DNA of 64,000 bases from a virus (taxonomy: Duplodnaviria; Caudoviricetes): IMG/VR virus record IMGVR_UViG_3300021387_001147, positions 1-64,000 of that record, one strand, 5' to 3'. The notes below the pieces were generated by a model that ran no database searches, was not told where the DNA came from, and saw nothing but the letters and a program-made list of their open reading frames with translations. Made by a program: the position numbers and the translations under genes. Shown in pieces: positions 4,680 through 33,497 of the stretch. Position 1 is the stretch's first letter. Each line of letters begins with the position of its first letter.

Positions 4680-6424
4680 TGTCTCTCTCCAACACCGCAA
4701 CCCCGAAATATTACGGCCAGTTCCGGGACGCAGTAATACGCGGCGAAATACCGGTATGTGAGACTATTGAGATGGAGATGAATAGGATTGATGCTCTTAT
4801 TCGATCCCCTATTTACTATTACGATGATAACGCTGTTGAAGGATACATTTCATACTGTGAGAATGAATTAACACTTACAGATGGATCTGACATGTTCCTC
4901 CTCGATAGCTTCAAACTTTGGGCAGAAGAGATATTTGGCTGGTACTACTTTGTTGAAAAGTCTGTATACGTGCCAGGTAAGAATGGAGAGCCAGGGAGAT
5001 ATGTTCGAAAGACTGTTAAGAAGAGATTAACTTTGAAACAGATTCTTATCGTAGGACGAGGAGCCTCCAAGTCGACTTACTGCTCAACGATTCATAGTCA
5101 CTATTTAAATGTTGACACGTCTACCACACATCAGATAGCTACTGCTCCAACTATGAAGCAGGCAGAAGAAGTATTATCCCCAATTCGTACAAGTATCATA
5201 AGATCACGTGGACCATATTTCAAATTCTTAACAGCTGGATCTATTCACAATACGACTGGATCAGCTGCTAATAGAGTTCACTTGGCTTCAACTAAGAAAG
5301 GCATTGAGAATTTCTTTACTGGATCACTGCTTGAAATTAGGCCTATGAGCATAGATAAGCTTCAGGGTCTAAAAGTGAAAGTTGCATCAGTTGATGAGTG
5401 GCTTTCCGGTGATATTCGTGAAGATGTTATCGGTGCTATTGAGCAGGGTGCATCTAAGAATCCTGATTATCTCATCTTAGCTACAAGTTCAGAAGGCACT
5501 GTACGAAATGGACCTGGCGATACTGTAAAGATGGAGATCATGGACATTCTTAAAGGTAAGTACATGAATCCGCATGTATCTATTTGGTACTACAAGCTTG
5601 ATGATGTGAAGGAAGTTGCTAATCCAGACATGTGGGTTAAAGCAAATCCTAATATTGGTAAGACAGTTTCTTATGAAGCTTATCAGATGGATGTTGATAA
5701 GGCTGAACATAATCCGTCAGCAAGAAATGATATTCTGGCTAAGAGATTTGGTATTCCGTCAGAAGGCTATACGTACTTCTTTACTTACGAAGAGACACTA
5801 TGTCATCCGAAGAAAGAGTATTGGCAGATGCCATGCTCTATGGGTGCTGACCTTTCTCGTGGTGATGACTTCTGTGCTTTCACTTTTCTATTCCCGCTTC
5901 CTTACGAGAAGTTCGGAGTTAAAGTTCGTTCTTACATTACTTCTAATACTCTGCATAAACTCCCAGGCGCAATGCGATTTAAATACGATGAATTCATTGA
6001 AGAGGGCAGCCTTATAGTTCTTGAAGGCACTGTTCTGGACATGAATGAAGTCTATGAAGATCTTGAGAAGCATTATCTTGCATTTGATTACGACATCAGA
6101 TCATTTGGATTCGACCCGTATAATGCTCGCGAGTTCGTACAGAGATGGGAAGCTGAGAATGGACCCTTTGGAATTGAGAAAGTAATTCAGGGTGCCAAGA
6201 CCGAATCTGTACCTCTTGGCGAATTAAAGAAACTTGCTGAGGATAGATGCCTTCTGTTTGATGAGAAGCTTATGGAGTTTTGTATGGGTAACTGTATCAC
6301 TCTTGAAGATACAAACGGCAACAGGAAACTCCTTAAGCGCCGCCATGACCAGAAAATAGATAATGTGTCAGCTCTTATGGATGCATTCATAGCCTATAAG
6401 CTTAACAAAGATTTGTTTGATTGA
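4679..6424 (+). CDS. terL: terminase large subunit
   Basis: Walker A-like VGRGASKS, Walker B VASVDEW, nuclease GADLS.GDDF and C-terminal KIDNVSALMDA. Confidence 0.95.
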   Translation: MSLSNTATPKYYGQFRDAVIRGEIPVCETIEMEMNRIDALIRSPIYYYDDNAVEGYISYCENELTLTDGSDMFLLDSFKLWAEEIFGWYYFVEKSVYVPGKNGEPGRYVRKTVKKRLTLKQILIVGRGASKSTYCSTIHSHYLNVDTSTTHQIATAPTMKQAEEVLSPIRTSIIRSRGPYFKFLTAGSIHNTTGSAANRVHLASTKKGIENFFTGSLLEIRPMSIDKLQGLKVKVASVDEWLSGDIREDVIGAIEQGASKNPDYLILATSSEGTVRNGPGDTVKMEIMDILKGKYMNPHVSIWYYKLDDVKEVANPDMWVKANPNIGKTVSYEAYQMDVDKAEHNPSARNDILAKRFGIPSEGYTYFFTYEETLCHPKKEYWQMPCSMGADLSRGDDFCAFTFLFPLPYEKFGVKVRSYITSNTLHKLPGAMRFKYDEFIEEGSLIVLEGTVLDMNEVYEDLEKHYLAFDYDIRSFGFDPYNAREFVQRWEAENGPFGIEKVIQGAKTESVPLGELKKLAEDRCLLFDEKLMEFCMGNCITLEDTNGNRKLLKRRHDQKIDNVSALMDAFIAYKLNKDLFD

Positions 6425-6435
6425 GGTACTTCAAA

Positions 6436-7182
6436 ATGAGAATAATTACTAATAATGGTTTGGTTTACGATAGTGCTGACTATTTGTACTATTTAGCACA
6501 TCATGGAATACAAGGACAGAAATGGGGAAAGCAGAATGGTCCGCCGTATCCGTTATCTCCAAGTGCTCATAGTCAGGCAGAAAAGAGACTTCGTTTGGTC
6601 AATGAAGGACAGCTTGATTCTTGGAAGGATGAACAGGCTGTAAAAGTAAACAAAAAGTACGATAAGAAGATCACACGTATTCAGAAAAAAGTAGATAAGA
6701 ATGCAAGAAGTCTCGAAGCTGCAAAAGAAATGGGTGCCAGTGATAAGGCTTTAGCAAAGAAACAGGCTAAAGTTCAGAGGCTAGTCGAAAAGAGTATAAA
6801 GACTAAAGCGATGAAAGCCCTTGAAAATGAAGCATTAGCCAAGATGAACATTGACGATGTCAATGCTGAGGAAATTAAAGTGATTAAAGCGCGTGCTAAA
6901 GACGCATTGATTACAATTGGCAGCATGGCATTACATGCTGGAGGCGTTATTCCTTTCCATTTTTACGCTATCTCTAATACAAAGGCTATTCGTAGAGACA
7001 GTAGGATGAATACACTTAACATTAAGCAGAAGCAAGGCATGTCTAATCTTAAATCCGATAAGAATGTTGCATTTGTAGCTAATCGAGCAAAAGGTATGAG
7101 AACAAGCGGACTTTCTTATGCACAGATTGCTAGAAAGCTTGGCATACCGTTAAGCTCCGTATCCTATTACTTGAGTCTGTAA
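6436..7182 (+). CDS. HHGIQG-motif protein with C-terminal HTH
   Basis: YLAHHGIQGQKWG..NGPPYPL N-terminus; GLSYAQIARKLGIPLSSVSYYL HTH. Confidence 0.6.
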   Translation: MRIITNNGLVYDSADYLYYLAHHGIQGQKWGKQNGPPYPLSPSAHSQAEKRLRLVNEGQLDSWKDEQAVKVNKKYDKKITRIQKKVDKNARSLEAAKEMGASDKALAKKQAKVQRLVEKSIKTKAMKALENEALAKMNIDDVNAEEIKVIKARAKDALITIGSMALHAGGVIPFHFYAISNTKAIRRDSRMNTLNIKQKQGMSNLKSDKNVAFVANRAKGMRTSGLSYAQIARKLGIPLSSVSYYLSL

Positions 7183-7202
7183 AGCATTGAGGTAACTTCA
7201 AA

Positions 7203-8480
7203 ATGCCATATAATTTAACAGATAGATTAAAGAATGCCTGGAATGCATTCACCTCCAGGGATCCCACCACGAGATATCCTGGAGAGTTTTATGGATCTGC
7301 TTACAGGCCTGATCGAAAACGAAGCTTCGTAACGAATGACGGTAACATCATCACAATGATTGAAAACCGTATTGCTGTTGACGTAGCTCAGGTTGACATC
7401 AGGCATGTTAAGAAAGATAAAGATGGAAACTATAAAGAAGACATGGATACAAAAGGGAATCTAAATTTCCTATTTCAAGTCAGTGCCAACTTAGATCAAA
7501 CAGGAAGAGCTTTCTTTCAGGATGCTGCTATGAGCCTTCTAGATGAAGGATGTATAGCACTTGTTCCGATTGATACGGACATTAATCCTGAAGACGGCTC
7601 TTTTTCTATTGAATCGATTCGAGTTGGCCAGATTCTTGAATGGTTTCCAGCTCATATAAGAACACTTGTTTATAACGAGAAAACTGGCAGACGAGAAGAG
7701 CTAATTGTTCCAAAAGCTACTACTGCAATCATAGAGAATCCGTTCTATTCAATCATGAATTCTCCGAACTCTACTTTGCAGAGACTTATTAGAACACTTA
7801 GGACTCTTGACGTTGTCAATGAGGCTAATGCTTCAGGTAAGATGGATTTGATTATTCAGCTTCCCTATTCACTTAAGTCACCTCTTAAGCAACAGCAAGC
7901 CGAAGCTCGTCGTAAACAGGTTGAGATGCAGTTGGTTGGATCTAAGTATGGGATTGCGTACATCGATGCAGCTGAACACATTACACAGCTTAATAGACCG
8001 CTTGAGAACAACTTATGGAAAGAAGCACAAGACCTAACGGCAATGCTATACAACCAGCTTGGACTCACTCAGTCTATCTTTGACGGTACTGCGTCAGACT
8101 CACAGATGACCAATTACTATAACCGTACAATTGAACCTATTCTTGCTGCCATTACAGAAGAGATGGAAAGGAAGTTCTTAACCAGAACAGCACTTTCTCA
8201 GCATCAGGCGATCATGTACATTAGAGATCCGTTTAAGTTAACAACTGTTACTGATATTGCCAGCATTGCTCAGACATTTACTCAGAATGAAGTTATGTCT
8301 TCGAATGAGATCAGAGCAAAGATTGGCCTTAAACCTGTTAATACTGCAAGAGCTAACGAGTTGATTAATAAGAACATTAATAAAGTTGGTGAATCGCCAC
8401 TTCCGAAAGGAAATGATGAGATGCCTACTGAAGACGCTCCCCCAGCTACTGAAGCTCCTGAAGTAAACAATACAGAATGA
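7203..8480 (+). CDS. portal protein (HK97-like)
   Basis: 425 aa after terL; IENRIAVDVA..N..QTG..F..LLDEG..LVP and YYNRTIEP..EIRAKIGL patterns. Confidence 0.9.
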   Translation: MPYNLTDRLKNAWNAFTSRDPTTRYPGEFYGSAYRPDRKRSFVTNDGNIITMIENRIAVDVAQVDIRHVKKDKDGNYKEDMDTKGNLNFLFQVSANLDQTGRAFFQDAAMSLLDEGCIALVPIDTDINPEDGSFSIESIRVGQILEWFPAHIRTLVYNEKTGRREELIVPKATTAIIENPFYSIMNSPNSTLQRLIRTLRTLDVVNEANASGKMDLIIQLPYSLKSPLKQQQAEARRKQVEMQLVGSKYGIAYIDAAEHITQLNRPLENNLWKEAQDLTAMLYNQLGLTQSIFDGTASDSQMTNYYNRTIEPILAAITEEMERKFLTRTALSQHQAIMYIRDPFKLTTVTDIASIAQTFTQNEVMSSNEIRAKIGLKPVNTARANELINKNINKVGESPLPKGNDEMPTEDAPPATEAPEVNNTE

Positions 8481-32424: not shown

Positions 32425-33393
32425 ATGCCTGATCAAACACGAAATCTTAATAGTGTTACAGACTTTGCTGGAACACTAGATAGCAACGATCGAATCATCA
32501 TGACAGACAACAAGGCTTCACTTAAAGCTCTTACTACCGCTATTCTTGGTAAGGCGATAATTGAAGGGTATACTGGATCATCGTTAGCAGGAGCGAGTCA
32601 GTCTGTTAAGTCTGCTATTGATAGTTTAAATAGCAAACAAGCAGGAGCAAACGCAGGTGGTCACAACTCCGTTTTCCGTGGCAAGAACCTCGGAACATCT
32701 GTTACCGCTTCTCAGTGGTCGGCAATCAGCGGTGGGACGTTCGATGATTTGTATATTGGCGACTATTGGGTAATTAACTCAGTAACGTGGCGTATTGCAG
32801 CTTTCGACTATTGGCTGAATTGCGGTGACACAGCATGCACGACTCACCATGCTGTCATCGTTCCTGACAGCAATTTGCTGAACGCAGACGGAAGCACAAC
32901 GCATTATATGAATACTTCAAATACTACTGAAGGCGGCTACATTGGGAGCGGATTTTTCTCCGGTACGAATGCCGACAGTTCATCGAATACGGCGAAAGCG
33001 CAGTGCGTCACAAAGGCACAGAATGCTTTCGGGTCTTCACATATTCTGACTCACAGAGAATATTTCTCTAATGCAGTAACGAACGGATATGTATCTGGAG
33101 GAACGTGGACAGACAGCACTGTAGATTTGATGAACGAGTCGATGGTATATGGCAACAAGTTCTTCGAGAACATCATTAACGGAACAAATGTTCCTGCCGC
33201 ATATACTATTGATAAAGTACAGCTCCCCCTGTTTGCTTTTACACCGCAGTATATTTGTAATCGTGCGGACTGGTGGCTTCGTTCTGTTGTTTCTTCTTCG
33301 CATTTCGCTCGTGTCGGCGCCAGCGGGCTTTGCTACTACTTCGACGCTTCGAGCCCAGGGCTTGGGCTTCGCCCGGCTTTCGGAATCAAATAA
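32425..33393 (+). CDS. DGR-type target protein (C-type lectin-like C-terminus), putative receptor binding
   Basis: KNLGTSVT..GTFDDLYIGDYW N-domain; C-terminal WWLRS..F..V..G..AS..G.RPAF typical of DGR variable domains. Confidence 0.75.
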   Translation: MPDQTRNLNSVTDFAGTLDSNDRIIMTDNKASLKALTTAILGKAIIEGYTGSSLAGASQSVKSAIDSLNSKQAGANAGGHNSVFRGKNLGTSVTASQWSAISGGTFDDLYIGDYWVINSVTWRIAAFDYWLNCGDTACTTHHAVIVPDSNLLNADGSTTHYMNTSNTTEGGYIGSGFFSGTNADSSSNTAKAQCVTKAQNAFGSSHILTHREYFSNAVTNGYVSGGTWTDSTVDLMNESMVYGNKFFENIINGTNVPAAYTIDKVQLPLFAFTPQYICNRADWWLRSVVSSSHFARVGASGLCYYFDASSPGLGLRPAFGIK

Positions 33394-33423
33394 TCTTTAA
33401 TCTCCGCCCCTCGTGGGCGGAGA
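33271..33423 (+). other. DGR variable repeat, IMH and cruciform hairpin
   Basis: 7 A in 111 nt (33271-33381); NNY codons at the variable positions; tctccgccc-ctcgt-gggcggaga hairpin at 33401-33423. Confidence 0.7.
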
Positions 33424-33449
33424 GGTAATTCTGAAAGGAGGAGTTGACT

Positions 33450-33497
33450 ATGTCAGTTCCTAAGTACCAATTTAACTCATTACTTTTCACAAGTTAA
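33450..33497 (+). pseudogene. possible stump of DGR avd gene (MSVPKYQFNSLLFTS*)
   Basis: Strong GAAAGGAGG RBS before a 15-codon ORF at the position avd normally occupies. Confidence 0.4.

Follow-up and report, generated by a model that had tools for sequence, protein, structure and literature searches.

How does a phage tail gene come to carry the marks of targeted hypermutation when the machinery that would make them is missing? The question is posed by a 322-aa gene (P0001) in the first 64 kb of the 87,960-bp IMG/VR phage record IMGVR_UViG_3300021387_001147 (CheckV completeness 100%), the 64,000-nt stretch that we refer to as the window. An earlier reading of this DNA, made from its letters and open reading frames (ORFs) and referred to below as the sequence-only reading, had taken the gene for an orphaned target of a diversity-generating retroelement (DGR), with a variable repeat (VR), a hairpin and a possible stump of the accessory gene avd, and with no template repeat (TR) or reverse transcriptase (RT). 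Our analysis makes it very probable that P0001 is a tail gene with a stranded DGR target, in which the cassette beyond codon 5 of avd has been lost and one receptor variant has been frozen. What is left is a DGR in decay, clearly the relic of a known system, and it involves no new mechanism. New here are the recovery of a parental-type TR, a nested set of independent truncations, a coupling between hairpin and DGR, and a single frozen allele on two phage backbones.

The sequence-only reading had counted 7 A in 111 nt at the 3′ end of the gene, and this count holds. Segments of 111 nt starting at 33260-33277 contain 7-9 A; seven is the minimum for the entire genome, whose 32.4% A content predicts about 36 A per 111 nt. 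A tblastn search against phage genomes led to Acutalibacter phage Fontainebleau, where a 184-aa ORF, a TR and an annotated RT lie downstream of a target homologue 38.6% identical to P0001; the odd codons of the window align with AAY codons of the Fontainebleau TR. Public collections were scanned with a degenerate pattern, the VR scaffold in which each suspected variable site was replaced by N. This recovered L019, a 3.7-kb metagenome contig with two pattern matches about 800 nt apart, which on its reverse complement carries the 3′ end of a target, a hairpin, a 190-aa accessory gene, a TR, a 440-aa RT (RVT_1, E = 9e-14) and a 100-aa ORF.

Comparison with the L019 TR identifies the VR. Over the 112 nt from 33271, the window is mismatched at 21 of 27 TR adenines versus 4 of 85 other sites (Fisher exact p = 1e-13 for the concentration at adenines); put the other way, the two agree at 81/85 non-A sites and 6/27 A sites. 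The approximately 22% of TR A sites that are still A in the window is near the expectation for random replacement. All 11 AAY codons of the TR are changed (to CAT, CGT, GGC, GCC, AGC, CTT, TAC, TTC, GAC, AGC and CTT), and each retains the third base of the TR, giving the AAY to NNY pattern. TR-adenine sites also lie under AGC (33352-54), CTT (33361-63), TCG, GTT, CCA and GCT. Because the mismatches to a relative's TR fall at adenines, we conclude from these alignments that the 3′ end of the gene is a real DGR variable repeat, as the sequence-only reading had proposed. Most of the NNY codons listed there as variable do sit at TR AAY sites; TGC and one of the two TAC codons do not, being present in the L019 TR and hence templated rather than diversified. 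An alternative template from L021, a DGR-proficient relative, fits the window VR less well than that of L019, with 18 non-A mismatches and indels.

Neither a TR nor an RT was detected in the phage itself, and the absence reported for the window extends to the whole 87,960-bp genome. A six-frame RVT_1 search of this genome gave no match; the same search did pick up the RTs of relatives L007 and L011 in their records, which shows that it is sensitive to this RT lineage. In tblastn searches of the genome, the RTs of Fontainebleau and L019 had no match with E below 1, and related accessory proteins had none. No TR-like copy emerged when both strands were scanned without gaps and with tolerance at adenines (the best non-self segment had 27 non-A mismatches per 111 nt), and blastn of 33200-33440 against the genome returned the self-match only. 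The full accessory gene is absent from the locus, where only its ribosome-binding site (RBS) and five codons are left (33433-33464). None of the parts of a complete autonomous DGR (RT, TR and full accessory gene in the same genome) is present. The VR/TR scaffold pattern likewise had no matches in 185,579 species genomes and so revealed no host-borne TR, although an exact-match pattern of this kind misses drifted copies; in viral contigs it returned the contig of relative L005 alone. The adenine-restored TR that the sequence-only reading suggested seeking in the genome and host was found neither in the phage genome nor in the species genomes scanned, and turned up instead in relative L019.

Immediately downstream of the hairpin lies a short ORF of 15 codons, running from ATG at 33450 to TAA at 33497 (product MSVPKYQFNSLLFTS) and preceded by a strong RBS at 33433-43, as the sequence-only reading had noted. 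On sequence grounds, this ORF is a true stump of an Avd-like accessory gene. The RBS and the five opening codons agree with those at the 5′ end of the Avd-like gene of relatives, whose full-length products of 187-218 aa have similar starts (MSVPK.., MPVPK.., MSIPK..). The remainder of the ORF is of other origin: 33470-33491 matches, at 20 of 22 positions, an L019 intergenic stretch downstream of the RT and three small ORFs. Since a stop codon precedes the matching bases in L019, the ..FNSLLFTS end of the product would be non-coding DNA that is read through.

The fold of the accessory family makes "avd stump" a fair name. An AlphaFold2 (AF2) model of the family (pLDDT 83) is a helical bundle, and its top four matches among 48,161 chains (2rld, Z 14.3; 2gsc, 14.2; 8ub7_B, 13.9; 4dwl, 13.0) all belong to the Avd superfamily; 8ub7_B is a chain of a DGR ribonucleoprotein and 4dwl is Bordetella Avd, which superimposes with a root-mean-square deviation of 1.8 over 106 residues. 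Helical bundles generally score high, and we regard these matches as supportive of an Avd-like identity but not as proof. The accessory family has no Pfam match, a profile search against PDB sequences gave nothing meaningful, and Foldseek with the model returned no row at E ≤ 0.001.

Table 1. Positions in the window of the target gene, its variable repeat and the DGR remnants that follow it
Feature	Position	Strand	Basis or remark
Target gene P0001, 322 aa	32425..33393	+	ORF calling; tail/receptor-binding protein
N-terminal anchor part	32425..32625	+	Varies among phages sharing the C-terminal module (P0001/P0002/P0003 alignment)
Shared module: receptor-binding domain, VR, hairpin, avd 5′ end	32626..33470	+	blastn: 97.4% identity to L005/L017, 94.7% to L016
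Variable repeat (VR), 130 nt	33254..33383	+	Matches L019 TR
Initiation of mutagenic homing (IMH)-like element, GC-rich VR 3′ end GGGCTTCGCCCGGCTTTCGG (GGGCTTCGCCCGG..)	33364..33383	+	TR/VR homology ends here (L019, window)
Target-recognition hairpin/cruciform, 9-bp GC-rich stem (predicted)	33401..33423	.	Free energy and covarying stems in relatives
RBS of former Avd-like accessory gene, GAAAGGAGGAG	33433..33443	+	Conserved with L005 and L016 upstream of their longer ORFs
Remaining five accessory codons, MSVPK	33450..33464	+	Identical to starts of the L005 47-aa and L016 132-aa ORFs
Deletion/recombination junction	33465..33469	.	Homology to L005/L016 ends about here (to 33470)
Stump-ORF tail ..FNSLLFTS and stop, probable former intergenic DNA	33470..33497	+	20/22 match to L019 intergenic DNA

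Close relatives that share the module (Table 1) place the stump in a series. In L005 the ORF after the hairpin encodes 47 aa (MTMSVPKNKRKESKFEAQHHYYKLRDE...) that align with residues 4-43 of the accessory protein of Fontainebleau; next come a ribbon-helix-helix (RHH) gene and an integrase. The corresponding ORF of L016 encodes 132 aa, of which approximately 117 residues are homologous, and the contig then resumes exactly at the start of the ORF that follows the RT in L019; L016 lacks L019 positions 1262-2920, comprising the avd 3′ end, the TR and the RT. The accessory codons that are kept form a nested set of stumps: 5 in the window, about 43 in L005 and about 117 in L016. L016 also bears on past activity. 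Its protein (P0003) is nearly identical to that of the window at residues 69-282, and about 15 of the last 35 residues differ; at the nucleotide level, 29 of the 43 differences between the two modules fall inside the 130-nt VR, mostly at TR-A sites. This concentration indicates that a DGR was active in the recent ancestry of the module.

The DNA following the VR retains the cis elements of a DGR target. A GC-rich 9-bp hairpin after the stop codon had been picked out from the letters, and it proves to be real, with stem TCTCCGCCC at 33401-33409, loop CTCGT at 33410-33414 and stem GGGCGGAGA at 33415-33423. It begins 8 nt past the TAA (33391-33393), has a calculated free energy (dG) of -11.5 kcal/mol (DNA parameters) and is not followed by a T-run. 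Relatives have hairpins 4-10 nt after the stop, with compensating stems (CCCGGGCC, CCTGCGG, CGCGGGG, CCCTCCCC, CCCACCCC and CTCCGCCC); such compensatory stems were seen in L004, L006, L007, L009 and L011. Because the position and the compensatory changes recur in every DGR-bearing relative and no hairpin occurs in relatives without DGR parts, the comparison identifies the element as a DGR target hairpin, for which a role in homing is predicted. This pattern agrees with the target hairpin/cruciform studied by Guo et al. (2011), who found that the structure of the stem matters and its sequence does not (PMC3240598). We considered an intrinsic terminator as an alternative identity and rejected it, given the missing T-run and the co-occurrence of the hairpin with DGR parts. 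The active VRs of L018 and L019 share the IMH-like end of the window VR letter for letter. Furthermore, 33384-33425, which spans the gene end, stop, spacer and hairpin and is not templated by the TR, is identical at 41 of 42 positions to the active target of L019 (reverse complement 874-915). The gene bodies of the window and L019 are 63-78% identical, and their non-A VR sites agree at 82/85. The homing signals thus appear far more conserved than the target protein, either because they are constrained or because they were exchanged along with the cassette.

Two minor observations concern these hairpins. In the window, L004, L006, L011 and L021 the loops are 5 nt long and fit C-Y-Y-G-Y (CTCGT, CTTGC, CCTGT, CTTGT); that of L007 is a 4-nt TTCA. 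In DGR-proficient L021 (1620-1750), the usual target stop is replaced (AAA TAC), and the ORF runs through the hairpin for 13 more codons (..GIKYSLISAPCGRRD) before ending.

How often the family has lost its DGR was assessed by a census of 80 IMG/VR relatives, 61 of which had at least 2.5 kb of downstream sequence and were counted. Full loci with accessory gene, TR and RT numbered 46; a further 4 were partial and 11 had no DGR parts. Mean hairpin dG was -11.0 in full loci (n=46), -11.2 in partial loci (n=4) and -2.0 in those without DGR parts (n=11). Among the decayed loci, L025 keeps only the last ~30 RT codons, directly after the hairpin; L035 has a 126-aa accessory stump; and L066 has a 10-codon stub, MSVQIPCSIN followed by a stop. 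To judge by their sequences, the partial and stub relatives have independent breakpoints, and six or more independent truncations are seen. It would seem that the hairpin is maintained only in the service of the DGR and decays once the DGR has been lost. As a strong hairpin is found only with DGR parts, the loss in the window would be recent. Two relatives, L023 and L050, have their accessory gene, TR and RT ~1.1 kb further downstream of the target than usual, with an extra gene between hairpin and accessory gene. L045 (IMGVR_UViG_3300045988_028659) has a full DGR in which VR and TR differ at one adenine and one non-A site over the 70 nt scanned; this near-unmutated VR is perhaps the product of a recent non-mutagenic homing event or of a fresh acquisition.

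The census, the stump and the L016 comparison bear on one alternative, that the A-poor, NNY-rich end is plain conserved sequence of the DUF6273 family in a lineage that never had a DGR, and that the hairpin is an ordinary terminator. We give this reading next to no chance. It would account for the many family members that have no DGR and are still A-poor at the 3′ end (12-15 A per 111 nt; these members are JCL1032, L008, L010 and the 11 census loci out of 61). However, the accessory RBS and five codons are present, and are identical to the beginnings of the longer stumps in relatives that are 95-97% identical; the L016 module differs almost solely in its VR, mostly at TR-A sites; the T-run of a terminator is missing; and members without DGR parts are also without the hairpin. 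The stump and the comparison of the window and L016 VRs refute it.

We infer the following order of events. The C-type-lectin-like tip of the target would once have been rewritten by a DGR arranged as target-VR, hairpin, Avd-like gene, TR and RT. Everything past codon 5 of the Avd-like gene, TR and RT included, would then have been removed by illegitimate deletion or a module swap, leaving a fully mutagenised VR, the IMH-like end and the intact target hairpin. Without template and RT the phage itself could no longer rewrite the VR, so that a single receptor-binding variant would have been fixed, and the fixed allele would later have spread to at least one other phage backbone.

The sequence-only reading placed the breakpoint near 33465, and the alignments with relatives L005 and L016, whose homology to the window stops there, locate it at 33465-33469. 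Its proposal that the cassette was deleted and one variant frozen is favoured as regards loss and freezing; a module swap could take the place of deletion in situ. The 20/22 match at the junction favours deletion from an L019-like layout. A microhomology there (TTCCT..AA) is suggestive only, the true parental right flank not being to hand. The module starts at 32626 in three phages whose N-terminal anchors differ, which implies that the receptor-binding domain has been exchanged between phages, and the right-hand end in the window could be the crossover point of such an exchange. An orphan VR results whether the cause was deletion or module swap.

The position of the junction also speaks to a possible assembly artefact, in which the TR and VR repeats were collapsed and the intervening cassette dropped. 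The repeats are about 80% identical and so able to confuse assemblers. A collapse would, however, join the VR to sequence past the TR, and the actual junction lies in the accessory 5′ end, away from the repeats. The same protein and downstream gene order are found in independent assemblies of 88,016 and 88,195 bp, and other lineages show different, equally clean breakpoints. On these three grounds we rejected the artefact, which we consider exceedingly improbable.

Evidence that the allele is frozen comes chiefly from L005, which is a different phage backbone of 127-154 kb whose tail genes are 66-78% identical to those of the window, in patches. The two modules have 16 differences outside the VR and none from 33267 to 33354, where 10 of the 11 diversified AAY codons lie, and the exact 322-aa protein is present on 5 contigs. 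An identical 5′ VR on two backbones argues for movement of a fixed allele between them, and would be hard to square with continued homing.

These observations weigh against a rival in which the VR is still diversified in trans, with RT, Avd and TR-RNA supplied by a related DGR of a co-resident prophage, a co-infecting phage or the host; we judge this improbable. Several findings are in its favour. The cis elements are intact and 41/42 identical to those of DGR-proficient L018 and L019; a compatible donor exists in nature, given the agreement of the L019 TR with the window VR at non-A sites; and in phage BPP-1 the IMH and hairpin suffice to direct homing from plasmid-supplied TR and RT (PMC3240598). 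The hairpin is gone in relatives without DGR parts, and its perfect preservation here could mean continued use, although recent loss explains it equally well. Yet the 5′ ~100 nt of the VR is the same in the window and L005 despite the differences outside it, the exact protein recurs, no species genome matched the scaffold pattern, and for phage-borne DGRs remote targets are not expected and have not been seen (PMC5758913). A broader form of the idea, that the tip is still rewritten in trans by a related prophage or co-infecting phage and that cassettes in this family are disposable evolvability modules, shed repeatedly once a useful variant has been found, is to our minds just as doubtful.

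Several points weigh against loss of the cassette with freezing of one variant. There are four non-A mismatches to the L019 TR, at 33297, 33357, 33358 and 33380. The TR used is that of a relative (L019; gene body ~74% identical), none from the exact lineage having been found; as for a closer DGR-proficient relative, the best full-length accessory match, P0124 of L021, is only 69% identical. Over the VR 3′ ~30 nt (33355-33387, against L005 7204-7236) the window and L005 have 7 differences, at both A and non-A sites. Here L005 resembles L016 and the window resembles L019, so that the difference is probably a recombination tract inside the VR. The right-hand junction match of 20/22 nt is weak (E = 0.059 genome-wide) and is persuasive only as it abuts the breakpoint. 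Deletion in situ and acquisition of an already truncated module, by a crossover in the avd 5′ end, are both compatible with the sequences at hand. Freezing is the favoured interpretation of a few assemblies rather than of read-level data, and binding of a host receptor by P0001 would follow solely from its fold and gene position.

With regard to that fold, the C-terminal domain of P0001 (about residues 95-322) is modeled by AF2 (pLDDT 81.6) as a DUF6273-like, C-type-lectin-like fold. DUF6273 has been described as a domain that DGRs target, C-lectin-like in fold and carrying the VR at its C terminus (PMC11792537, PMC10743442). P0001 itself scores 16.2 bits against Pfam DUF6273 (PF19789; E = 0.0098, residues 272-322 only), below the gathering threshold of 23.5 bits; homologues 55-72% identical to it carry precomputed PF19789 assignments. 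At least 7475 of 8000 scored candidates belong to the homologue family at E ≤ 1e-10, and many of these are annotated as DUF6273. The model matched 9qa6 at Z 11.9, TvpA (2y3c) at Z 5.1 and Mtd (1yu0) at Z 4.3, and about 40 C-type-lectin-like domains at Z 3.5-4.5. It is consistent with the C-lectin-like fold in class, the Z scores to Mtd and TvpA being modest. Foldseek of the target against the PDB gave weak rows only, 9qa6 excepted. The best structural match, far above Mtd and TvpA, pairs the N-terminal domain of 9qa6 chain A (residues 32-283) with P0001 residues 95-322, a likeness suggesting that surface or secreted proteins of bacteria use this domain too.

The intact relatives closely resemble the BPP-1 DGR (mtd-VR, IMH, hairpin, avd, TR, brt). 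In L004, L019, L021 and others the parts follow one another as in BPP-1: the target is a tail protein of predicted C-type-lectin-like fold whose gene has its VR at the 3′ end, the changes are adenine-specific and turn AAY into NNY, and the VR ends GC-rich, with a GC-rich hairpin of 7-10 bp a few nt past the stop codon (PMC3240598); the model of their accessory protein is structurally similar to Avd (4dwl, Z 13.0). The window differs from BPP-1 in having no TR, no RT and no avd beyond 5 codons. Other differences belong to the lineage. Its accessory protein has 187-218 aa and no Pfam match, compared with 128 aa for bAvd; its hairpin loops are mostly 5 nt (CTCGT, CTTGC, CCTGT), compared with a published consensus of 4-nt GRNA (PMC3240598); and the target is of the DUF6273 family, with weak likeness to Mtd (Z 4.3).

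Closer in target type are the DUF6273 DGR targets of gut Firmicutes phages, namely Faecalibacterium prophages (PMC11792537), the "tentaclin" phages nd4 and nd12 (PMC10743442) and Fontainebleau (ON453893). They belong to the same family and have the VR at the C-terminal end of the DUF6273/C-lectin-like domain, and the order target, accessory gene, TR and RT of Fontainebleau, with its 38.6% identical homologue, is a direct parallel. Those DGRs are complete, whereas the window has only the target side. In its state of decay, the window resembles Treponema denticola, where a genome without RT or TR has target VRs whose mismatches to TRs of other strains sit mostly at adenines, and where the leftover targets were read by the authors as remnants of DGR loss (PMC4891356). 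Those targets are bacterial chromosomal lipoprotein genes; in the window, the target is a phage tail gene that has a dated breakpoint and keeps an intact hairpin and an avd stump, and the independent truncations of close relatives form a nested series with its own. Finally, ORF23 of Lactobacillus phage JCL1032, a structural protein described as "possibly associated in host specificity", is 46% identical over residues 77-321 and shares the position before the lysis genes and the A-poor 3′ end. It differs in having no hairpin, accessory stump or nearby RT, and its DGR ancestry would be older or absent.

The locus offers a clean, datable case of a phage losing targeted hypermutation and, most probably, fixing one receptor-binding variant, for which breakpoints, a parental-type template and sister lineages at other stages of decay are all available. 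The family can serve as a natural series in which to follow the survival time of homing signals once the enzyme is gone, and to see whether frozen alleles spread between backbones. For annotation, adenine depletion combined with a post-stop hairpin reliably flags DGR targets even without an RT.

The genomic setting agrees with a role for P0001 in the tail. The + strand of the window carries a siphovirus-like late operon, with terminase, portal, a protease-capsid fusion and then tail genes, including a 2086-aa tape measure protein, a Prophage_tail protein and large tail proteins of 572, 837 and 1567 aa with tail-fibre PHROG matches. P0001 lies between the 1567-aa protein and the lysis genes; next downstream are a 149-aa ORF and an endolysin (Amidase_2/PG_binding/CW_7), and a tyrosine integrase is encoded further along on the minus strand. 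A PHROGs search with P0001 and the 149-aa neighbour gave no family. This order, after the large tail proteins and before lysis, is typical of receptor-binding proteins, and the gene content marks the phage as a temperate, siphovirus-like one. Its genome reads normally in translation table 11. The backbone that carries the same allele differs in this respect. In L005 (IMG/VR 3300021255_001258, 127 kb; 6001-7242) and L017 (a Logan contig from SRR873598; 2956-16670), in-frame stops in the tail genes are solely TAG, at 7, 10, 1, 1, 1 and 2 per gene, and all genes end in TAA or TGA. The gene call of the collection translates TAG as Q, and the L005 phage looks TAG-recoded.

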